A DNA stretch of 64,000 nucleotides from an uncultured Holophagales bacterium (GCA_963842525.1 CAWJGT010000009.1:576001-640000), one strand, 5' to 3'; positions 1 to 10,063 are shown, numbered from the stretch's first letter. The notes: a model not told the origin generated them from the sequence alone. Translations and numbers: made by a program.

Positions 1-6
1 AGGTTA

Positions 7-35
7 TTGACAAGTGACGATGGGAGGGCTAGGCT
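7..35 (+). promoter_or_regulatory. sigma70-type promoter (TTGACA-17 bp-TAGGCT)
   Basis: Perfect -35 TTGACA at 7-12, exact 17-bp spacer, TAGGCT at 30-35. Confidence 0.6.
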
Positions 36-41
36 CCCGAA

Positions 42-107
42 TTGCGGGGAGGTGTAGACCTCCTCTCATCCCTCCAAAAAGGAGCGCACGAGCGCTCCTC
101 TTTTTTT
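42..107 (+). ncRNA. candidate ~65-nt small RNA with anti-SD linker
   Basis: Lies between the promoter and an intrinsic terminator; hairpin 46-65, single-stranded TCATCCCTCC 66-75; no ORF inside. Confidence 0.4.
76..107 (+). terminator. intrinsic terminator (possibly bidirectional)
   Basis: Stem AGGAGCGC-ACGA-GCGCTCCT, T7 tract after, A5 tract before. Confidence 0.8.
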
Positions 108-160
108 GGGGTGAGACCGCCGCGGTGGCGGGGGCCGGGGCTCCTGCATGTCCGCGCGTC

Positions 161-485
161 CCCGCGGTGGCGCTTACCGGTCCCGCGGGATCGCCTCGAG
201 CCGCCGCGAGCAGCGTCGCTGGTGCCGCGATGGCGCTTGTCGGTCCCGCGGGAACGCTTCGCGTCGCCGCGAGCAGCGTCGCTGGTCCCGCGGTGGAGCC
301 TGCCGGTGCCGCGGGACCGCTTCGAGTCGCCGCGAGCAGCGTCACTGGTGCCGCGGTGGCGCTTGCCGGTGCCGCGGGACCGGTTCGAGTCGCCGCGAGC
401 AGCGTCGTTGGTCCCGCGGTGGAGCCTGCCGGTGCCGCGGGACCGGTTCGCGTCGCCGCGAGCAGCGTCACTGGTCCCGCGGGAC
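161..485. repeat. GC-rich tandem repeat, 63-bp unit made of three 21-bp subunits (~5 copies)
   Basis: GAGCAGCGTC recurs at 208, 271, 334, 397, 460; subunits start with CCGCG. Confidence 0.9.
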
Positions 486-488
486 GGC

Positions 489-725
489 TCAGACTTCCGT
501 GTACACGAGATACTCCGGCATGCGGTCCAGGTCGAGGCGCAGCAACTCGCGCCGCTGGGTCTCCGGGGCGTCCTCCGGCTCCTCCAACTTGAGCCAGGTC
601 GCGAACCAGCGCCCGTGCTGATAGAAGATCTCCAGCCCCGCCTCTTCCGGCGTGTAGGGCGGCACCCAGACCTCCGGCTGAACGGCCCGCGGATCGTGCG
701 GCCGGGCGGTGAAGTTGTCCCGCAC
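489..725 (-). CDS. small hypothetical protein
   Basis: 78-aa ORF with natural composition, last gene of a minus-strand run. Confidence 0.6.
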   Translation of the reverse strand: MRDNFTARPHDPRAVQPEVWVPPYTPEEAGLEIFYQHGRWFATWLKLEEPEDAPETQRRELLRLDLDRMPEYLVYTEV

Positions 726-734
726 GACAAGATT

Positions 735-1033
735 TTAGAGGACTTCCCGGGTCGCCTCGTCAGGGCCCCTCGGCAGCCGCTCTGCCCTGTTGCCGGGCTC
801 ATAGCTCGCCAGATCTCGCAGGCTCCGGATGGCGGGCTCCAGACAGTCGATGAACAGGCACCCCAGGACGGCGCGGACCTCGGTCGGGAAGTCCGGATCC
901 GTGTCGAGGTCGCGGTACCGGCCTTCCTGCGGTGTCACCGGCTGGCAGCGTTGGAGTTTCGCAGACTCTCGAGGCACGCCCCCAGGTCCCGGCACACGCA
1001 CTGCAGCCCTCTGCGGGTCTCGCCTTCGGTCAT
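735..1033 (-). CDS. small hypothetical protein, frameshifted near 950
   Basis: ATGA overlap with upstream gene; MTEGETRRGLQCVCRDL... continues in another frame as ...DFPTEVRAVLGCLFIDCLEPAIRSLRDL. Confidence 0.55.
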
Positions 1034-2416
1034 GATGGAACCTCGCTGCCCTCGGCGCGATGGCGCCGGCCTGCGGATTCGGGCGGATCGTTGCAGCAGC
1101 GTATGGACAGGTCCCAGGCTGCCAGGCGGTCGCCGCTGAACCGGAACATCCGCCATAGAAACGAGGCGAGTTCTCTCTCGAGCCGTCTGAGGTCCTCTGG
1201 GGGGTCGGCCTTGCCGAGCCGGTGAAACACGCGGCGGGCGAGGGGCAGATCCTGCCGGCCTTCGAGAGCCGTCTCGAGCTTCTGCCTCCAGAAGCCTGAT
1301 CCCTTTTGTCTCCCCGGCCTTGATCAGCTCCAGTCCCAGATCGAGAGAGACCAGGATCGCCTCCGGCAGGAGCCCGTCGGCGAGCACTTGCCGGCGGACC
1401 GCGTCCAGCAGGGCGAGAGCCTCCGGATCGCCGAGGAGGGCGGCGGCTTTGGCTTCCATCCAGGCAATCCAGGACAGCTCGCGGGCATCCTGGGCCTGGG
1501 TCCGGCCCCGGAGGCAGCGGCTCTCCTCCAGCGTGCGCCGGGCCCGTCGCTCCTGTCCCAGATCGGCCTGGCACAGTGCCAGGGCGGCCTCTGCGCGCGC
1601 CGCGAGAGCCAGGCGGCGCTCTGTCGAGATCAGAACCCGGCCGCGCAGGAGCGGACCGGCGGCCCGCTCCGAGTCTCCCTGTTCCGTCAAGAGGAGGCCA
1701 AGCAGGAGGAGGGAGACCCCTTCCTCGTCGGAGAGCCCCTGGCTCGCGAACGATTCCGCGCTGCGGCGCAAGAGGGCGGCCGCCTCCTCCAGCCGTCCCC
1801 GTTGCCAGCGGAGCACTCCTTGAGCCTGGCAGAAGCGGGGCCGGTCGGAAGACTCGAAGGGCACCGTGAGATAAAAGGCCTCCTCGTTGAAACACATCTC
1901 CGCCGTGTCAGCGTCTCGCCGCAAGATCTGACGAGCCATGCCGGCGAGGTACCAGGCACGGCTCAACAGCATCGCGAGCACCCGTTGGTCCTGCCCGTCC
2001 GGGAGCCAGGCCCCGAGGTCGATCGCCAGGAGCGCGGCCTCTTCGGCCTGCTCGGGCGCTCTGGGCAACAGCTCCCGGCTCGCCTCCACCAGCAGGCCCA
2101 AGAGGTCCAGGCGGTGAAAGCGGGCCTCGCGAACCACCTCGGTGCGGCGCTTCGGCTTCAGGCGCAACAGCTCGCCGCGCAGCTCTTCGGCGTCCGGGCT
2201 GCCATGGTGCAGCCATTCGAGGACCTCGATCTCGAAGCTCTGCCCCTGGCACGGTGCCGGGACGACTCGTCGTCCCTCTGTCCGCTCCAGCAGCCGCACC
2301 AGCGCCTCATCGCGGCACTCCGCGCAGGAGAGCAGATGCAGGAACGCCGGCTGCCCTTCCGCAGGCAAGCCGGCGAGGAGCTGCTGTACTTCTTTCTCAT
2401 ACGAGGGGTTTCTCAT
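1030..2416 (-). CDS. TPR-like helical repeat protein with N-terminal HxxxCxxC (anti-sigma-type zinc finger); frameshift near 1230-1280
   Basis: HLLSCAEC motif, TPR-like helices, GGGAGG SD before ATG 2416; C-terminus continues in the 1030..1230 frame. Confidence 0.75.
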
Positions 2417-2625
2417 CTCACGGCCTCCCGTCCTCTCATCCGCCGCCAGCATAGGGGCGTCCCGGCCGGCCGGTGCCGGAGAAAGGCCGAAAGCCGCGAA
2501 TTGCGGCCCGAGTGGTCCTTTTTCCGCTCCCGGGTGACCGCGCGCCGCGAGGGTTATCCCCAGGTGTCACGCTTTTGCCCGGCTGGACACCTCTTTCTAC
2601 CGGAAGCATTTCGAGGAGGACCGAA

Positions 2626-4089
2626 ATGGCGCGCAAGGAGACTCCGCCTCCGTTGGGTGCAGTGCTGCGGTTCCTGCGGTTCGGCTATGGCTGGAGCGAG
2701 GAGGAGCTGGCGGAAGCGCTCGGCGTCAGCCCGAGCCTGATCTCCCGCTACGAACGGAAGGGGCTCCGCCGCGAGCGCCTGGAGGAGCTGCTCGCCGTCA
2801 TGGACGTGCCGGTCGAGTCGATCGACGCGGCCCTCTTCGCCCTGGAGCTTGGCCGCCTGCCGGAAGGCTCGGGCTCGCCCGTGGACCCCACTCCGGCGCA
2901 GCGGCGGAGCATCCATCGGGCCGCTGCGGTGGCCGGCTGGAACGCCGCCAAGGCCACCCTTGCCCGGCTCACGGCGAACCTCCGGCGCATCCGCGCGGAC
3001 CGTGCCTGCCGCCGGGCCAGGGAGCTGGTCGAGGCTCTGAAGAAGATGGCGCCGCAGGAACGGCGGAAGGCGGTCGAGACCGAGCGGAAATACTGGAGCC
3101 CGATGGTGGCGGTGGAGCTGTGTGAAGAAAGTATCCGGGCCGCCGCCCACCAGGCGAAGCGGGCGTTGGAGCTGGCCGGCTTGGCGCTGCGTGTAGCCGA
3201 GTTCCTCCCCGTCGCCAAGGCGTTGCGCGAGCTCGTCCAGGGGTTCTGCTGGGCGTTCGTTGGCAACGCGCGGAGAGTCCAGGGCGACCTGCGTGGCGCG
3301 GAAGAGGCTTTCCTCCATTCCGACCGCCTGTGGGAAGCCGGCGGGCCTGCTGATCCGGAGCTGTTCGACGGCGCGCGCCTGCTTGATCTGAAGGCGTCGC
3401 TGCGCAGCTATCAAGGCCGTCTCCAAGAGGCCGTCGTCCTTCTCGATCAGGCTTTCACAGGAAGCCAGTCAGAGGGAAGCAGGGCGCGGATCCTGGTCAA
3501 GAAAGCGATCGCCCTGAGGTTCCTGGGAGCCTACGAGCGGGCCCTCGCAGTGACTCGGCAGGCGGAGTCCCTGATCGACCGGAGCGAGGACCCTCGATTC
3601 CCCTGGCTCGTCCAGTTCAATCGGACGATCAATCTTTGGCATCTGGAACGGCACCCGGAAGCTGCAGAGCTGATGCCAGGAGTATGGGAGTCGGTGGCCG
3701 ATCTGGGCAACGAGCTCGACCTTCAGCGATCTCTCTGGCTGGACGCGAGGGTCAAGAGCGGACTGGGGAAGGACCAGGAGGCTCTGCCCGCTCTTGAGCA
3801 GGTGCAGCGTTACTTCACCGTCAAGCAGATCGCCTACGACGCGGCCCTGGCCAGCCTGGAAGTTTCGGAGCTATTGCTGGAGCAGGGGCGCACGGCCGAG
3901 GTCAGGGTGCTCGCCGAACAGATGTACTGGATCTTCAAGAACCAGCAGGTCCAGGAGGAAGCCCTCAGGGCACTGGGGGTTTTCTGCGAGGCGGCCCGGC
4001 AGGAAACCGCGACGGTCGGCCTGACGCGACAGGTCCGCGATTTCCTCCTCCGGGCGCAACATGACCCCAGGCTCCGGTTCGAGCCGTGA
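2626..4089 (+). CDS. XRE helix-turn-helix plus TPR-like repeat regulator
   Basis: N-terminal WSEEELAEALGVSPSLISRYE HTH; TPR-like C-terminal region; GAGGAGG SD. Confidence 0.85.
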   Translation: MARKETPPPLGAVLRFLRFGYGWSEEELAEALGVSPSLISRYERKGLRRERLEELLAVMDVPVESIDAALFALELGRLPEGSGSPVDPTPAQRRSIHRAAAVAGWNAAKATLARLTANLRRIRADRACRRARELVEALKKMAPQERRKAVETERKYWSPMVAVELCEESIRAAAHQAKRALELAGLALRVAEFLPVAKALRELVQGFCWAFVGNARRVQGDLRGAEEAFLHSDRLWEAGGPADPELFDGARLLDLKASLRSYQGRLQEAVVLLDQAFTGSQSEGSRARILVKKAIALRFLGAYERALAVTRQAESLIDRSEDPRFPWLVQFNRTINLWHLERHPEAAELMPGVWESVADLGNELDLQRSLWLDARVKSGLGKDQEALPALEQVQRYFTVKQIAYDAALASLEVSELLLEQGRTAEVRVLAEQMYWIFKNQQVQEEALRALGVFCEAARQETATVGLTRQVRDFLLRAQHDPRLRFEP

Positions 4090-4093
4090 AAGG

Positions 4094-4125
4094 GCGTAGG
4101 GACGCGGTCCCCTGCATCCCTACGC
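4094..4125. repeat. GTAG-type REP-like hairpin between convergent genes
   Basis: GCGTAGGGA...TCCCTACGC inverted repeat. Confidence 0.5.
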
Positions 4126-4136
4126 TACAGCGGACA

Positions 4137-4460
4137 CTATCCAATGCAACGGCCGTTCGGGTCGGCCTCGCAGCCGTTGTCGCTCGTTGTGGCTGTACCC
4201 TGGCCTGCCAGGCAGTGGCCGTCCGGGTCAGCGCTGCAGCCGTTGTCGCCCGTTGCGGCTGCGCCCTGGCTCACCAGGCAACGGCCGCTGGGGTCGACCT
4301 CGCAGCCGTTGTCGCTCCAGAGACCGGTCAGCAGACTCCAGAGGCTGACAAGGAGGCCCGGGCGAGGCTCGGCTCCGGCCGCGGGTGCAGCCGAAAGGAC
4401 AGGTACCGCGAGGGTGGCGGCAAGGACGAAGACGAGGGCAAGTCGGACCAGACGAGGCAT
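4137..4460 (-). CDS. secreted peptide precursor with three DNGCxxDPxGxC repeats
   Basis: Signal-peptide-like N-terminus, amphipathic helix, repeats DNGCEVDPSGRC / DNGCSADPDGHC / DNGCEADPNGRC; AAGGAG SD. Confidence 0.85.
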   Translation of the reverse strand: MPRLVRLALVFVLAATLAVPVLSAAPAAGAEPRPGLLVSLWSLLTGLWSDNGCEVDPSGRCLVSQGAAATGDNGCSADPDGHCLAGQGTATTSDNGCEADPNGRCIG

Positions 4461-4513
4461 GAGCGGCTCCTTTTGGCGGAAAGCGCACCGGGCGGCCCCC
4501 GTGGCCGCGCGGG

Positions 4514-4533
4514 CGTCCCCGGCAATAGAGTGC
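4514..4533 (-). promoter_or_regulatory. upstream motif shared by DPxG-peptide genes (copy 1)
   Basis: GCACTCTATTGCCGGGGACG, 17/20 identical to 25116-25135, similar distance to start codon. Confidence 0.55.
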
Positions 4534-4600
4534 CAGGAATCGGGTATGGAAATTCACCCCACGAGCCGCAAGGCGCGGCTCGAACCCTGAGGAGGGATGC

Positions 4601-5422
4601 ATGGCGAGACCAGGAGACCCGGCCGACCTGAGGCTGATCGTGATCTTCCTCCGCTCGCTGCGGAAGTGGACCCAGGAGAAGCTCCATGAGGAGTCCGGCG
4701 TCGACCGGGGGCTGATCTCCGACTATGAGCTGGGGGAGAAGGCGCCGACGCGCAGGACCCTCGAACGGCTGACCGTGGCGGTCGGACTGCCGTATTCCTT
4801 TGTCGAGCGGTTGCTGCCGGTCTTCCGGGAGGCCCGCCGCGCCATGGAAACCCGGCCGGCCGGCCGGGGCACGGCGGCGCCTGAAGCGCCCGCGAGCCTG
4901 GAGGAAGACCTGGGCAAGGCGATCCTCGACGCCGTGCTCCCAAGTCTGACGCACCATCTAATGGAGCTCGAGATCCTGGTGAACGGGGCGGATGACGACG
5001 AGGCGGCGCAGAGGCCCGAGGACCGCCTCGTGGCGGTGGAGCTGTGGGCGGGCCTGAAGGACCGCACGCCGCGCGACCGGCGACGGGCCCTCGAAGCCGA
5101 CCGGAAATACTGGACCTGGGCGGTCGCAGAGCGGCTGGCCCTGGAAAGTGAGCTGGCTGCGGCCCACGAGGCCAGGCGGGCCCTGGAGCTGGCCCGCCGG
5201 GCCCTGCGCGTGGCCGAGCTCGCGCCCGGCACCCAGGCCTCCCGGAGCCGCACCCAGGGATTCTGCTGGGGGTTCCTGGCGAAAGCCCGGCGTGCCCTGG
5301 GAGACCTGCCCGGCGCCGAACAGGCCATCCTCGAATCCGACCGTCTATGGGAAGCCGGAGCCGCCGATCCGGGATTGCTCGACGGCGCGCGCTTGGCCGA
5401 CCTGAATTCGGCGTTGTCGTAA
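4601..5422 (+). CDS. XRE HTH protein, short paralogue of 2626..4089
   Basis: WTQEKLHEESGVDRGLISDYE HTH; shares GFCW, SDRLWEAG and DGARL motifs with the long paralogue, then stops. Confidence 0.85.
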   Translation: MARPGDPADLRLIVIFLRSLRKWTQEKLHEESGVDRGLISDYELGEKAPTRRTLERLTVAVGLPYSFVERLLPVFREARRAMETRPAGRGTAAPEAPASLEEDLGKAILDAVLPSLTHHLMELEILVNGADDDEAAQRPEDRLVAVELWAGLKDRTPRDRRRALEADRKYWTWAVAERLALESELAAAHEARRALELARRALRVAELAPGTQASRSRTQGFCWGFLAKARRALGDLPGAEQAILESDRLWEAGAADPGLLDGARLADLNSALS

Positions 5423-5491
5423 GAAGGCCGGCAAGGATGCCGGCGCTCCCAGCGGAGTCCTGGGAGCCCGTTCAGGTTGGGCAGCCGTAGC

Positions 5492-6046
5492 CTACCCGCC
5501 CAGCACCGCCTTTTTGAAGTCCTTCCCGGGGGCGGGATCGGGGCCGATCCAGGTGGCGAGGATGGCGTCGGCCGTGGGCTTGCCGGGGAGCGTGCCCTTG
5601 ACCTTGCCGCCGACCTCGACCTGGGTGCCCTCGCCCGGCAGGTAGGTCAGCACCAGCTTCTGGCCCTTGCCGACCCCGTCCATCCAACCGCAGAGGGTGG
5701 CGAAATTCTTCTTGACCTCGGCCGAGGCTTTCGGGGTGTTGTCTTCCAGCCCGTCGTTCCAGGCCTCGCACATCTGGTCCTTGCTCACGTCGTAGATGAA
5801 GTGCAGCACCATACGGCGGGGGGTATCGGCGGCGAGGACCTTCTCGGCCGACTTCTCCTTCTGGGGGAGGTAGAGCCCGCCGACATAGACCTTGATGATG
5901 AGCTTCGTCCGCAGGCCCATCCCGTTGAGGACGAGCTTCTGGCCGTTCACCTCCACCTGATCGGGGAGGGTGACGCCGGCCAGGGTGCCGGCGATGGCGG
6001 ACGTGGCCAGGAGCAGGACGAACAGGGCGATCGGCAGCCTTCGCAT
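5492..6046 (-). CDS. secreted chalcone isomerase-like protein
   Basis: Signal peptide; LVLNGMGLR-KVYVGGLY and WIGPDP motifs. Confidence 0.85.
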   Translation of the reverse strand: MRRLPIALFVLLLATSAIAGTLAGVTLPDQVEVNGQKLVLNGMGLRTKLIIKVYVGGLYLPQKEKSAEKVLAADTPRRMVLHFIYDVSKDQMCEAWNDGLEDNTPKASAEVKKNFATLCGWMDGVGKGQKLVLTYLPGEGTQVEVGGKVKGTLPGKPTADAILATWIGPDPAPGKDFKKAVLGG

Positions 6047-6126
6047 TGTAGAGTTCCTCCAGGATCGTTCGTAGACGGAACGTCGCTGGAGGGAAGTTTA
6101 ATTCCGCTTGCCGTATCCATGGAATC

Positions 6127-6729
6127 ATGAAGACCGATGCCGAGCTGGTGGCGAGCGCGCTCAAGGGCTCGCAGGAGGCGTTCCGCGAGCTCGTGGTGCG
6201 CTTCGAGCGCCCGGTCTACAGCCTGGTGGTGCGCATGGTCCAGGACCCGGGCTTGGCCGAGGACCTGGCCCAGGAGGTCTTTTTCAAGGCCTACCGCCGG
6301 CTCGACACCTACGATCCAGTGCGCAAGTTCTCGAGCTGGCTGTTCAAGATCGCGCACAACACCACCATCGACCACCTGCGGCGGCATGCGCCGGAGACGG
6401 TCCCGCTGGAGCCGGACGGGAAGGGCGACGACCGCGGAAGCCTTGCCGCGGTGCTGGCGGACACCTCCACGGAGGACCCGTCGGCTGCGGCAGAGCGCCG
6501 GGACATGGCAAGATCCCTGGAGCGCGCGATCGCCCGCCTGCGGCCCGAATACCGGGAGCTGGTGGTGCTCTTCTATGTGGAAGGGGCTTCGTACCAGGAC
6601 CTGTGCGACGCCACCGGGCTGCCTCTCGGGACCGTGAAGACGAACCTCCACCGGGCGCGCAAGGAGCTCGCCCACGAGATGGCGGCCCAGGGATGGGGGC
6701 CAGAAACCCGGAGCGCGCCGGCCTCGTAA
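6127..6729 (+). CDS. ECF RNA polymerase sigma factor (SigW-like)
   Basis: AEDLAQEVF, FSSWLFKIAHN region 2; GTVKTNLHRAR region 4. Confidence 0.92.
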   Translation: MKTDAELVASALKGSQEAFRELVVRFERPVYSLVVRMVQDPGLAEDLAQEVFFKAYRRLDTYDPVRKFSSWLFKIAHNTTIDHLRRHAPETVPLEPDGKGDDRGSLAAVLADTSTEDPSAAAERRDMARSLERAIARLRPEYRELVVLFYVEGASYQDLCDATGLPLGTVKTNLHRARKELAHEMAAQGWGPETRSAPAS

Positions 6730-6754
6730 GGCGAGGCGAAGGAGAAAGAACCGA

Positions 6755-7297
6755 ATGCGTCCCTCTCAGCAAGACCTCCTGGCCCGCTGGCTCGCCGCCG
6801 AGCGGGACGACCGCGCGGACGAAGCCGAGGCCGCGCTGCTCGCCCTGTTCGAGGAGCTGCCGCGTCCGGCGCCGCTGCCCGGGTTTGCCGACCGGGTCCT
6901 GGCGCGGACGGGTCTGGGGTTCATCGCAGCGCCGGTCCAGAGGAGCCTGTTCGCATCCCGCTGGCGACGTGTCGTGCTCGCGCTCGCCCTGGTGGCGACC
7001 GGCCTGTCGCTGTTCTGGCTGCCGGCGACCCTGACCGCACTGGCGGGCCTGTGGAGCTTCGGCGATCTCATCCAGCTCTCGACGGCCCTCTTCGCGAGCG
7101 CTGCCGAGGGCTTTGCCGAGCTCGCCGCCTTCGGGGACTGGCTGCTGACGCTGGGAATCTCTCTGGCGAGCCTGCTCGCGACGCCCACTGTGGCCGGGAT
7201 CATGATCGTCTGCCTCGTGGTGTCGACAGTTGCGTTCCGCTTTCTCCGCGACCTCATCACACGAGAGAGGAGTTGGATCCATGTGGAACCTATCTGA
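6755..7297 (+). CDS. putative membrane anti-sigma factor
   Basis: Directly after ECF sigma; PGFADRVL motif followed by hydrophobic helices. Confidence 0.65.
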   Translation: MRPSQQDLLARWLAAERDDRADEAEAALLALFEELPRPAPLPGFADRVLARTGLGFIAAPVQRSLFASRWRRVVLALALVATGLSLFWLPATLTALAGLWSFGDLIQLSTALFASAAEGFAELAAFGDWLLTLGISLASLLATPTVAGIMIVCLVVSTVAFRFLRDLITRERSWIHVEPI

Positions 7298-8894
7298 TCG
7301 ATGGAACCGGTGGGGGCTCGGAGCCCGGTGGCTCCGGGTCCTGGCGGTCCTCCTCGCCCTGGCCCTGCCCGGGGCGGAGCGGGCTGCCCTGGCACAACCC
7401 GAAGCGACAGCGTCGCGGCAGGAGCTGCGCGACGCTCTCGAGGAAAGATATGAGGTGCTCCCCCTCCAGGACGGCCTCGTGCTGCGCCCGCGCGAGTCGG
7501 AGCGTGGGGTGCGCACGATCGAGCTGAGCGACGGCACGGTCGCCATCAACGGCCAGCCGGTGAACGAGACGGTCGTCCGCGACTGGCTGGGCGAGGACGC
7601 GGGCCCGGTCCTCCAGCTCTGGCGCCTGCAGCCCGGCGAGCGGCGGGCCCTGTTCGACCTGCAGGCAGGCCGGGGGGGCGCGACGAGCGCGCCTCCTGCT
7701 TCCGAAGACACCCTCTCTGCCGAGGAGACGCCCGCGACGGAGGAGCCATCGACGACCGGCGAGAGCGAGATCCCGGACGTGCCCGAGGCACCCGAGACGC
7801 CGGAGGAGCCCGACTACGTCCGGTCCGACAGGACCTCTTCCGGCGGCCGCGTGAGGGTCTTCGGCAGCATCTCCGTGGAGAAGGGCGAGGTGGTCCGGGA
7901 GGCCGTCGCCGTGCTGGGCTCGGCCCGCATCGACGGCGAGGTGCTCGGCGACGTCGTGGCGGTCGGCGGCTCGGTCGAGGTCAACGGCAAGGTCGGCGGC
8001 ACGGTGACGGCGGTGGGGGGCGGCGTCCGCCTGGGCCCCAACGCGGAGGTGATGCAGGACGTCACCAGCGTCGGCGGCTCCATCGAGCGCGAGGAGGGGG
8101 CCCGGGTCCACGGCCAGTCCGCCGAGGTCCCCCTGGCGCCGGGCCGCCGGGGCTGGGACCACGACGTCGAATTCTTCCCCTGGTCCGTCCTGGATGGGCC
8201 GACGAGCGTGTTCTGGGAGCTCATCAGCCTCCTGGTGCTCGGCCTGCTGGTCTGCCTCTGCCTGCTGATCGCACGGAGGAGCGTGGAGCGGGCGGACCAC
8301 ATCGTCGCCACCGAGCCCTGGATTGCGGGCCTCGTCGGATTCCTGGCGCAGCTTCTCTTCATCCCGCTGCTGGTCGTGGTGACGATCCTGCTGGCGATCA
8401 CGATCATCGGCTGCGCGCTCTTCCTCCTCTATCCGTTCCTGTTCATCGCCCTCCTCCTGGCGGCCCTGGTCGGCTACACCGCCGTGGCCTACCGCCTGGG
8501 CCGGGTCCTCGAGGCCCGTTTCGGGCGGAGCTTCGGCAGCGCCTACGGGGTCGCCATGATCGGTGTGGTGGCCATCCAGATCTGGGCGATCTTCTCCCAC
8601 CTGCTCGGCATCGGCGGCGGGCCGCTCGACTTCATCGCCTTCATCCTGCTGGCCTTCGGCGCGGCGGTGGAGTACGTGGCCTGGACCGTGGGCTTCGGCG
8701 CCGTCCTGCTCGCCTGGTTCCGGGGTCCCAACCGGTGGCGGCGGACCGCCGCGGCCCCTCCCATGCCGGTCGCTCCGGTCCCGCCGCTCCCCGGGCCTCC
8801 GGCCTATGCGGACCCCGGCCCGACTTATCCCTCCAGCCCTGAATCCCTCCCGCTCTCCGAGCGGTGGGAGGAGCCGCCCCCTCCCGAGCGGTAG
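7281..8894 (+). CDS. membrane protein with bactofilin-like (polymer-forming) beta repeats
   Basis: Repeated GDVVAVGGSV-type beta units, multi-TM C-terminus, Pro-rich tail. Confidence 0.75.
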   Translation: MWNLSDRWNRWGLGARWLRVLAVLLALALPGAERAALAQPEATASRQELRDALEERYEVLPLQDGLVLRPRESERGVRTIELSDGTVAINGQPVNETVVRDWLGEDAGPVLQLWRLQPGERRALFDLQAGRGGATSAPPASEDTLSAEETPATEEPSTTGESEIPDVPEAPETPEEPDYVRSDRTSSGGRVRVFGSISVEKGEVVREAVAVLGSARIDGEVLGDVVAVGGSVEVNGKVGGTVTAVGGGVRLGPNAEVMQDVTSVGGSIEREEGARVHGQSAEVPLAPGRRGWDHDVEFFPWSVLDGPTSVFWELISLLVLGLLVCLCLLIARRSVERADHIVATEPWIAGLVGFLAQLLFIPLLVVVTILLAITIIGCALFLLYPFLFIALLLAALVGYTAVAYRLGRVLEARFGRSFGSAYGVAMIGVVAIQIWAIFSHLLGIGGGPLDFIAFILLAFGAAVEYVAWTVGFGAVLLAWFRGPNRWRRTAAAPPMPVAPVPPLPGPPAYADPGPTYPSSPESLPLSERWEEPPPPER

Positions 8895-8950
8895 GATTGA
8901 AAACCACGCCCGCTCTCCGTATCGAACAGGAGAGCGGGCGTGGCGCTCTC

Positions 8951-10063
8951 ATGATCCTCCCCGTCGAAGAGATCCTCGCCGCCCCGGCCGGCGCTCCGCC
9001 CCCGGGCCCCCCGGGTCGTACCCTCGGCCGGTCGCGCGAAGGCCGGGACATCGTTGGCTGGCGCTTCGGGCACGGGGACCTGCACGTCAGCCTGATCGGC
9101 GGCTGCCACGCCGACGAGCCGGTGGGGCCGGCCATGCTGCGGCGGCTCGTGGACTGGCTGGCGGACCGCCCGGCCGGCGATCCCCTTCTGGAGGCGGCCA
9201 CCTGGTCCATCGTCCCGCACGTCAATCCGGACGGCGAGGCGCGCAATGCCATCTGGAGCGAGACGACCCGGCCGGCGGCCGACCATCTCGGGGCTCCGGA
9301 CCGCGTCTACGACCTCGCCCCCTACCTGCGCCACGTCGTGCGGGAGAGGCCGGGCGACGACATGGAGTTCGGGTTTCCCCGCGGCGGGGACGACGCGGGA
9401 GCCCGGCCCGAGAACCGTGCCGTGGCGGCGTTCCTGGCCGAGGCGGCGCCGTTCCACCTCCACGCCAGCTTCCACAGCATCGGCTTCGCGACCGGCCCCT
9501 GGTTCCTGATCGAGCCGGCCTGGGTGGAGCGCACCGGGGGGCTGCGCGAGGCACTCCGCGCGCGTGTCCGGCAGATGGGCTACCAGCTCTTCGACGTCGA
9601 CCGCGGAGGAGAGAAGGGCTTCCGCCGCGTCGACGAAGGGTTCTCGACCCGCCCGGACGCGCTCTCGATGCGGGCGTGGTTCGAGGCGCGGGGAGATCCG
9701 GAGACGGCGGCCCTCTTCCGGCCGAGCTCGATGGACTACGTCCGCTCGCTGGGCGGCGACCCCTTCACGATGGTTTCCGAGATGCCGCTCTTCCTGCGCC
9801 CGTTGGAGGAAGGAGAGACGGGGCGCCCCGACGACCCGCGCTTCCGCGCCTGGCACCAGCGGATGGCCGCCTGCCGCACCCCCGAGGAGCTGCGGGCCGC
9901 CGCCGCGCGGGGCGGCGTGCGGGGCATGCCGCTGCGCGATCAGATGCGGCTGCAGCTCGCCTTCCTGGACGAGGGCTTGAAGATGGTGGGAGTTATGCCG
10001 TGGCGGCCCGCGGCTGCTCTTCCTCGCCGGGGGTGTCGAGGATCGAGCGGACGGTCTGGGTGA
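8951..10063 (+). CDS. M14 family zinc carboxypeptidase
   Basis: GCHADEP (HxxE), VNPDG, PENRA, SFH and SEMP motifs. Confidence 0.85.
   Translation: MILPVEEILAAPAGAPPPGPPGRTLGRSREGRDIVGWRFGHGDLHVSLIGGCHADEPVGPAMLRRLVDWLADRPAGDPLLEAATWSIVPHVNPDGEARNAIWSETTRPAADHLGAPDRVYDLAPYLRHVVRERPGDDMEFGFPRGGDDAGARPENRAVAAFLAEAAPFHLHASFHSIGFATGPWFLIEPAWVERTGGLREALRARVRQMGYQLFDVDRGGEKGFRRVDEGFSTRPDALSMRAWFEARGDPETAALFRPSSMDYVRSLGGDPFTMVSEMPLFLRPLEEGETGRPDDPRFRAWHQRMAACRTPEELRAAAARGGVRGMPLRDQMRLQLAFLDEGLKMVGVMPWRPAAALPRRGCRGSSGRSG

Follow-up and report, generated by a model that had tools for sequence, protein, structure and literature searches.

A gene cluster at the beginning of a 64,000-nucleotide stretch of DNA from an uncultured Holophagales bacterium (GCA_963842525.1 CAWJGT010000009.1:576001-640000; the whole stretch is called the window, and positions are counted from its first letter) encodes a small propeptide with repeated DPxG cores, flanked by two XRE-type proteins with tetratricopeptide repeats (TPRs), named R1 and R2. 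The module of peptide and receptor-like gene is real, selected and family-wide. Based on gene pairing, protein architecture, selection and shared ligand grooves, it is probably an RRNPP-like peptide signalling module in a diderm bacterium. The genes of the locus are as follows.

About 2416..1030, minus strand: HxxxCxxC-TPR gene (zinc-finger-like), approximately 461 aa if read through
2626..4089, plus strand: R1, XRE-TPR gene, 487 aa, proposed cytoplasmic peptide receptor
4137..4460, minus strand: propeptide gene, 107 aa, with signal-like N-terminus, Trp helix and three cores
4601..5422, plus strand: R2, short XRE-TPR paralogue, 273 aa, with XRE domain, long helix and TPR1-2

The peptide gene is convergent with R1 (47-bp gap) and divergent from R2 (140 bp), distances lying within the adjacency span of -60 to 400 bp used for RRNPP propeptides. 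In an earlier note on this DNA, it had been placed between a full XRE-TPR gene and a short XRE paralogue, which are indeed R1 and R2, and next to a HxxxCxxC-TPR gene; the latter is present but adjoins R1 head-to-head, not the peptide gene, and is frameshifted in the assembly. Using Pfam, HTH_3 scored above the cut-off in R1 and R2, while the TPR matches of R1 and of the zinc-finger-like protein were weak and below the cut-off. The propeptide matched no Pfam and no PHROG family, and the PHROGs search of the locus proteins returned helix-turn-helix (HTH) matches only.

Pairing was assessed over the host genome (9.95 Mb, 96% complete). Candidate peptides were selected solely on two features, a hydrophobic N-terminus and a G-xxx-DP-x-G motif at the C-terminal end (n = 58, four evidently false). 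Forty-eight of the 58 were located within 500 bp of an R1 homologue, versus 2.2 expected and a maximum of 10 in 1000 randomisations; the enrichment of DPxG open reading frames (ORFs) beside TPR genes, which the earlier note had put forward as a check, is therefore found genome-wide. By profile search, pairing within 1 kb was found for 68 of the 76 peptide genes and for 75 of the 94 receptor-like genes. The genome counts are slightly high because a few loci are duplicated between contigs. Outside the genome, a peptide was present at 68/73 GTDB loci and next to 54 of the 61 metagenome receptors with room downstream. Two layouts were observed. In the convergent layout, an XRE-TPR R1 is accompanied by a peptide gene on the opposite strand, often by R2 behind it and sometimes by a divergent zinc-finger-TPR gene before R1. 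In the co-directional layout, the peptide gene is followed by a TPR protein, mostly with HxxxCxxC instead of an HTH. At one locus, L078 (G000:C9:424154-441068), zinc-finger-TPR genes (six or more) and seven peptide genes form a tandem array, and the peptides have a core type of their own, G[PS]CIDP.G....C.

The host is a diderm (6 Omp85 matches), and the named relatives of R1 and the peptide belong to Thermoanaerobaculia/Acidobacteriota/Holophagales. Following a phylum survey with six candidates scored per genome, the receptor profile was detected at 1e-30 in 3 of 250 other genomes, all of the same order. Among 60 genomes of the order, the six same-family genomes all contained 7-25 peptide matches, and 11 of the 54 others contained 1-4. 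No relatives were found in viral contigs. The ratio of nonsynonymous to synonymous divergence (dN/dS) of the propeptide, computed for 8 of 14 relative pairs, was 0.24-0.52 in seven, the remaining pair giving 1.4 at a dS of 0.06; by this measure, the peptide genes are under purifying selection in seven of eight pairs.

Within the propeptide, the following parts were distinguished.

4371..4460, minus strand: predicted Sec signal peptide with basic n-region, hydrophobic core and Ala-rich c-region
4311..4355, minus strand: helix with Trp (residues 36-50) that runs up to the first core
4278..4313, minus strand: core 1, DNGCEVDPSGRC
4212..4247, minus strand: core 2, DNGCSADPDGHC
4146..4181, minus strand: core 3, DNGCEADPNGRC

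Signal-peptide cleavage would take place between residues 24 and 30. Residue A24 is almost invariant in relatives, and among 71 propeptide relatives none carried a lipobox and one carried a Tat-like motif. W41 is likewise almost invariant, and 46 of the 71 relatives have a Trp two residues ahead of the first core. The features given for the 107-aa gene in the earlier note, a signal peptide, a Trp-containing helix and three DNGC-xx-DPxG-x-C cores spaced for 9-residue Cys loops, were all recovered at 4137-4460, the signal peptide as a signal-like N-terminus; the amphipathicity attributed to the helix proved only moderate (moment 0.24-0.34), and the Cys loop, although present in all three window cores, is not general. 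Across the genome, a C-xx-DPxG-x-C loop was counted in 16/16 convergent-layout versus 4/46 co-directional peptides. The three cores derive from a 66-bp tandem unit at 4146-4315, and two G-xxx-DP-x-G motifs were obtained by chance in 3 of 200,000 shuffles of the propeptide sequence. The core common to the family is [DE]-x-G-x-x-[ILM]-D-P-x-G, two or three motifs per propeptide occur in 35 of 76 peptide genes, and family length ranges from 49 to 128 aa. An AlphaFold2 (AF2) model of the propeptide (pLDDT 56, pTM 0.23) gave weak hints of a hairpin and was not used.

R1 was modelled by AF2 at a pLDDT of 91, the XRE fold itself covering residues 9-76.

R1 residues 1-76: XRE-HTH domain
R1 residues 90-139: long helix
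R1 residues 159-477: eight TPR helix pairs

Its length of 487 aa is within the 250-500 aa of RRNPP receptors. Highest structural matches were Pins/LGN (Z 20.9 and 20.7) and APPBP2 (20.1). RRNPP matches were RapI (Z 19.4; root-mean-square deviation 4.2, 295 aligned), a phage Rap (19.1) and NprR (18.9; 4.8, 295), followed by PlcR (15.7) and AimR (15.7 and 14.2). All top matches shared 10-14% sequence identity, Foldseek was in agreement, and the R1 sequence had no match among solved structures beyond HTH and consensus TPRs. According to the model, R1 is built like an RRNPP receptor, and it may or may not share descent with Rap, NprR, PlcR or AimR.

The TPR register of R1 was set from the Gly at position 15, and positions 2, 5, 6, 9, 12 and 13 were taken as ligand-facing (PMC1261162, in part). 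Such positions are almost invariant in TPR2, 3 and 6 (N214, R217, R251, D254, S258, R368, W371) and most variable in TPR4-5, as would be expected if the ligand had a constant and a variable part. N214, at position 9 of TPR2, was present in 36/37 co-directional receptors, 16/18 convergent rows (one a duplicate of the window gene) and 16/17 R2 proteins. Among receptors for which no peptide was scored, although several lie close to one, it occurred in 7 of 15, and among divergent zinc-finger TPRs, none of which has S258, in 9 of 14. NprR binds its peptide by a groove Asn plus an Arg for the peptide Asp (PMC3763537, in part); N214 is a candidate counterpart of NprR Asn275. Together, these genetic signs suggest a locus-specific ligand in the TPR groove. 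Complex prediction using R1 residues 88-487 and peptide residues 71-107 scored 0.01 against a mark of 0.32 with controls that were not folded, and speaks neither for nor against binding.

Correspondence between groove and core was evaluated out of sample, with sites fixed beforehand and nearest-neighbour prediction from 54 training pairs to 51 new pairs, 10 of 61 having been dropped as 90% identical to others. Eight groove sites outperformed all 500 linkage-matched random site sets under four of four definitions. Compared with 200-site halves they were on par, being better for three core positions and slightly worse for four. As separate observations across L002-L158, F331 accompanied Cys-closed cores (83/90 vs 2/15, but with 4 independent contrasts only), and a groove Cys at R1 residue 338 was common.

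Between close loci, differences are often confined to one block that starts at R1 residue 200-240 and reaches into the cores, the flanks being conserved. Silent divergence of the N-half versus the C-half was 0.04 versus 0.42 for L046/L054 and 0.17 versus 0.61 for L003/L005, with similar cores. These blocks suggest exchange of the sensor half, though part of the excess is systematic. A stricter version, in which TPR3-8 and the cores swap as one fixed specificity block, held only partly: C-half silent divergence was higher in 10 of 11 closest pairs, yet the same was seen in 10 of 12 pairs selected for a close C-half, and cores did not follow the C-half.

R2 is 42% identical to R1 residues 1-259 and stops at the codon matching R1 Tyr262, the remaining TPR gene being missing from the DNA. 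In the GTDB downstream set (38 rows minus one R1 and two cut by the locus end), 24 of 35 R2 proteins end at R1 residue 241-267 and 11 are full. Metagenome loci contributed 11 distinct short R2 (nine ending at 253-269) and 12 scored as full, two of these only partly aligned. No C-terminal remnant was detected behind short R2 genes in 26 rows, a single match being a frameshifted R1. The dN/dS was 0.28-0.64 for short R2 pairs versus 0.19-0.29 for full genes. When the N-terminal regions were placed on a tree (97 rows, quick IQ-TREE, rooted at the midpoint for drawing only), no fewer than six changes on well-supported branches were required to explain the short label, and the window R2 fell among mostly full R2. 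The missing remnant, the dN/dS and the tree changes indicate that the short form recurs and is being maintained, with selection somewhat relaxed; the idea of a pseudogene or of a break in the assembly was rejected on the recurrent end point, the selection and the lack of a remnant.

At 14 loci with two long receptors (L012 not being a true R1/R2 pair), identity over residues 1-80 was 0.23 both within and between loci, and over residues 201-420 it was 0.76-0.78 within versus 0.41-0.52 between loci. Silent sites of R1 and R2 were approximately 100% identical in L007, L022 and C31, which looks like the mark of gene conversion, although perfect cases may be assembly collapse. Older pairs (fourfold sites <0.65) were analyzed at eight variable groove sites in 10 distinct pairs, L098 being excluded as a duplicate of L019 and L144 because of its shortness. 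Groove sites were identical in 56/80 cases versus 121/311 at equally variable non-groove sites, with between-loci values of 0.27 and 0.24. The direction held in 8 of 10 pairs, and as sites of one pair are not independent, this sign count (one-sided p about 0.055) is the fair measure. Sharing of groove sites implies that both R1 and full R2 are selected to recognise one locus-specific ligand, for which the peptide encoded between the twin receptors is the simplest candidate. In full-length R1 and R2 of a given locus, the XRE domains are unrelated and the TPR halves shared.

From these results, the following mechanism is proposed. The propeptide would be exported by Sec, and cleavage would free one or more [DEK]-x-G-x-x-x-D-P-x-G cores, with Cys pairs oxidised in the periplasm. 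A core could then return to the cytoplasm via a general peptide importer, Opp/Dpp-, OPT- and POT-type genes being located elsewhere in the genome. It would sit in the TPR groove of R1, where N214, R217, R251, S258, R368 and W371 would hold the conserved DPxG part and the hypervariable TPR4-5 positions, judged by position and covariation, would read the variable residues. R1 and R2, having different HTHs, may work jointly at the two divergent promoter regions, one of which serves the peptide gene itself. To judge by the sequence pattern, gene conversion and selection keep full-length R2 matched to the ligand that R1 recognises, and short R2, with most of the groove lost, may be a peptide-blind partner. 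In the co-directional layout, the architecture points to the zinc-finger-type N-terminus as output domain in place of the HTH.

Import-type genes were present in the genome, among them OPT and POT genes, an oligo_HPY ATPase and, on C28, an OppC_N permease together with a family-5 binding protein; none of them was module-linked. SbmA/BacA had no match in the genome. Two family-5 binding proteins near loci were dropped as linked importers, one lying in a histidine-kinase gene region and the other having no signal peptide. Separately, a family-5 solute-binding protein without evident signal peptide was found at L076:7093-8934 (minus strand), 2 kb from a receptor without scored peptide.

Several results weigh against the proposed signalling role. 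LGN/Pins and APPBP2 score the same as or above any RRNPP protein, and because these eukaryotic TPRs match best, the fold match is generic and no proof of RRNPP descent. Cores vary inside a single propeptide, and the disulfide loop is, by its distribution, a subfamily trait that is optional in the family. Cell-to-cell use needs the outer membrane to be crossed twice; no importer, protease or target gene was a fixed module part among the neighbour clusters seen, and no operator palindrome was significant in the leaders tested. With the N-half fixed, core similarity showed no dependence on the TPR half as a whole (partial r -0.03, p 0.63), and it correlated with the N-half of R1 (0.29, p 0.002); this comparison included L010, with a misassigned peptide, which was left out of later groove-core tests. 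Groove-core partial correlations were positive (0.11-0.24 overall, 0.15-0.24 in-sample and pooled), exceeding random variable sites by only 1-2 standard deviations (P 0.05-0.12). Independent-pair tests gave nothing significant in 4-8 contrasts, and a rule noted beforehand (E-Q groove with CG core) returned 1.4 same versus 1.1-1.2 opposite.

Some of these results would fit a peptide that is output rather than ligand: R1 and R2 would detect some other diversifying molecule (a protein of a phage or competitor, or the product of a different module), and the exported peptide would be an effector or alarm that they turn on. Divergence and exchange of the TPR half outpace change in the cores (L046/L054, L003/L005), cores track the N-half of R1, independent-pair tests were null, and a promoter-like element and leader hairpin are common to the peptide gene and the R2 upstream region. 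This explanation is nevertheless considered rather unlikely, as peptide-adjacent receptors of either layout retain the groove signature, which decays in others, groove sites predict cores out of sample, zinc-finger-type receptors without HTH are paired equally tightly, and neither viral-contig matches nor defence-like neighbours were seen. Also unlikely is a private loop, in which the same pair would operate with a peptide processed and recaptured in the cell's own periplasm, either for timing or for sensing secretion, proteolysis or redox state. A diderm envelope might well trap a cyclic peptide of 10-13 residues, and the module contains no dedicated outer-membrane transporter. On the other side stand allelic diversity, sensor-half exchange and dozens of modules per genome, in Rap-Phr the outcome of social selection (PMC5199041, in part); a private timer fits less well because it needs none of these.

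A toxin-immunity or kin-discrimination cassette, whose exported peptide harms non-carriers and whose TPR protein neutralises it and autoregulates, would account for tight linkage, polymorphism and block exchange. In the literature searched, DPxG came up with papers on Rhs toxins; the 107-aa protein has neither an Rhs or toxin domain nor a YD-repeat core ending in PxxxxDPxG. Since, moreover, the cores are tiny and neutral or acidic, the paired TPRs bear HTH or zinc-finger output domains, and immunity needs neither two receptors per peptide nor a sensor-less R2, such a cassette is highly improbable. Least probable of all is a multi-core precursor of a ribosomally synthesised and post-translationally modified peptide, with its enzyme encoded elsewhere and the TPR genes regulating a biosynthetic regulon: a leader helix followed by repeated cores with conserved Asp/Gly/Cys does resemble such precursors, and nonribosomal peptide synthetase (NRPS)-type genes lie within 4 kb of 5/62 loci (raw count), but the propeptide has a predicted Sec-type signal, each peptide goes with one TPR gene and not one enzyme, and, as stated in the earlier note, no tailoring enzyme stands next to the peptide, none being present among the genes of window 1-9000 and no modifying enzyme family recurring among the neighbour clusters seen at 62 loci.

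The leader of the peptide gene contains the following elements.

4478..4520, minus strand: hairpin leader, inner stem 4492-4508, 5-nt loop beginning with A; conserved
4467-4474, minus strand: Shine-Dalgarno sequence, just after the hairpin leader
4525..4533, minus strand: promoter-like element GCAC[CT][ACT]T.., directly upstream of the hairpin; conserved

The GCAC element, which served as anchor for 48 of 67 leaders, may have a -10 role. In both layouts, it is followed by a long hairpin (inner stem CGGCC-A....-GGCCG) with AAGGAG just behind, and element and hairpin also occur in the R2 upstream region. Mean folding z was -2.15 in 60 leaders versus -0.48 at 80 control sites (single-strand folding). 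Inner-stem changes comprised 15 G-U, 7 compensatory and 5 A-C cells, and pairing and covariation of the named structure exceeded 500 shuffles, relatedness of the sequences being a caveat. RNAalifold on a MAFFT alignment of the leaders gave no consensus structure, the window's own leader taken singly was not significant (z 0.55), and Rfam gave three chance-level matches, none within the leader. The hairpin may serve as a 5′-terminal stabilising stem; a CsrA reading of the A(N)GGA loop was rejected, the genome being without CsrA. An operator palindrome GGTG-N8-10-CACC near -35 was unsupported (5 of 48 leaders had 5-bp arms without mismatch, against a null mean of 2.1 and a maximum of 5). An inverted repeat AGGTGTC-N17-GACACCT at 2562-2592, in the divergent region between the zinc-finger-TPR gene and R1, is a candidate operator.

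The window zinc-finger-TPR gene carries the motif HLLSCAEC. Its start at 2416 was picked by GGAGG spacing, the longest ORF beginning at 2452. The frame is broken near 1280-1286, where a paralogue on C7 aligns across in two frames. An independent contig (depth 3.2) has one base fewer at 1280 and is otherwise identical over 309 nt, so the frameshift is probably an assembly error, on the thin evidence of one shallow contig; 17 of 94 receptor-like genes of the assembly are fragmented, which fits sequencing error. The protein has neither N214 nor S258 and thus no N/R/S groove signature of peptide-paired receptors, and it is for this reason probably not a receptor of the window peptide. The RRNPP-like system inferred for a diderm in the earlier note is partly supported, by the association with HTH-TPR and zinc-finger-TPR genes, the diderm host, the XRE and eight TPR pairs and the groove genetics. 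The HxxxCxxC motif, with which co-directional and divergent TPR proteins begin their N-terminal region, is shared with zinc-binding anti-sigma domains (ZAS, zf-HC2), and a small relative matches zf-HC2 weakly (E 0.0035). The present proteins differ from ZAS in being fused to a cytoplasmic TPR sensor without membrane span. No ECF (extracytoplasmic function) sigma factor recurred as partner among the neighbour clusters seen. Upstream of the C7-locus zinc-finger-TPR gene, two very small proteins consisting of HxxxCxxC on its own were noted (L077:6034-6427, minus strand), with a similar family at 4 loci.

Neighbours within 4 kb of the 62 loci, given as clusters seen and raw counts without enrichment test, were small XRE proteins (15 and 9 loci), a 130-aa helical orphan (10), mixed ABC ATPases (8), two-component proteins (8), Pterin_4a-like proteins (5) and NRPS-type genes (5). 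Possible targets are the 130-aa orphan, a Pterin_4a-like protein with LKAERVQ repeats and a small XRE protein (L079:6948-7355, 6486-6917 and 3132-3584). In the window, a 63-bp tandem array of 5.1 copies is located at 161-482; arrays with a period near multiples of 21 bp numbered 24 within 5 kb of peptide genes, versus 15.5 by chance (maximum 23 in 300), several lying directly behind a receptor 3′ end. Two small orphan ORFs downstream of the zinc-finger-TPR gene (489-725 and 735-977, minus strand) had no Pfam or PHROG match, and the second resembles a 'CxLxDxLxPAIxxL' family found next to 3 other loci. An exported Chalcone_3 protein (5492-6046, minus strand) and an ECF sigma factor (6127-6729) followed by its own downstream membrane-protein genes (6127-8894, plus strand) are apparently outside the module.

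If the proposed signalling role is correct, cytoplasmic peptide signalling extends over the monoderm/diderm divide, at several times the Rap-Phr copy number. The twin receptors would show, as a natural experiment, how a pair of proteins remains matched to a single ligand, and more than 100 natural groove-core pairs would serve as a library of orthogonal peptide switches for use in E. coli. UBA5704, in which the host is placed by the names of relatives, is ubiquitous in soil (PMC11245096, in part). More tentatively, this soil family of Thermoanaerobaculia may have evolved, independently of Bacillota, a cytoplasmic peptide communication of approximately 70 channels per genome, with disulfide-closed or linear DPxG hairpins crossing a diderm envelope, XRE-TPR heterodimers that differ in their DNA-binding heads and have sensors matched by gene conversion, and zinc-finger (anti-sigma-like) outputs in the second layout.

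Cytoplasmic peptide signalling by TPR receptors has been described for Bacillota and their mobile elements (PMC10075063 and PMC12700828, both in part). In the full-text literature searched, outside which most subscription papers lie, no description of such a system was found, and nothing on RRNPP together with Acidobacteria. LGN/Pins and APPBP2, the best structural matches, share an eight-repeat groove for extended peptides, but are eukaryotic TPRs without HTH or secreted partner. AimR-AimP and Paenibacillaceae subfamily 08 share the TPR fold (AimR Z 15.7, 14.2), and a DPG motif is reported as common to their mature peptides (PMC12700828, in part), whereas the motif here is DPxG and there are no viral-contig relatives; neither AimR-type DPG peptides nor Acidobacteria were found in five supplement text files of that paper. 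Rap-Phr resembles the module in TPR fold (RapI Z 19.4) and in many paralogous modules per genome, and it has intragenic duplication and divergence of peptide cores, orphan receptors and, like NprX, a precedent for multi-core propeptides (PMC5199041, in part). Rap lacks an HTH, numbers about 11 per B. subtilis-group genome versus about 76 peptide genes here, and the multi-core state, common here (35/76), is transient in Rap-Phr.

The closest likeness in plan is to NprR-NprX and PlcR-PapR: an XRE-HTH and a TPR superhelix of similar size, an adjacent small gene with a predicted Sec-type signal, a conserved groove Asn (a candidate match for that of NprR) and Arg, and a conserved peptide Asp. Detector limits for RRNPP systems are a receptor of 250-500 aa and a propeptide length limit widened for duplications (PMC10075063, in part). 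The propeptide of 107 aa exceeds the RRNPP span of 10-100 aa and the 21-50 aa of validated propeptides (same source), the host is a diderm of the Acidobacteriota instead of a member of the Bacillota, and identity is 10-14%. Because host and propeptide length fall outside that class and homology is no more than possible, the module is not filed as an RRNPP member. In contrast to NprR and PlcR, two receptors with different HTHs here surround one peptide, with a recurrent sensor-less short form and with Cys-closed cores in one layout.

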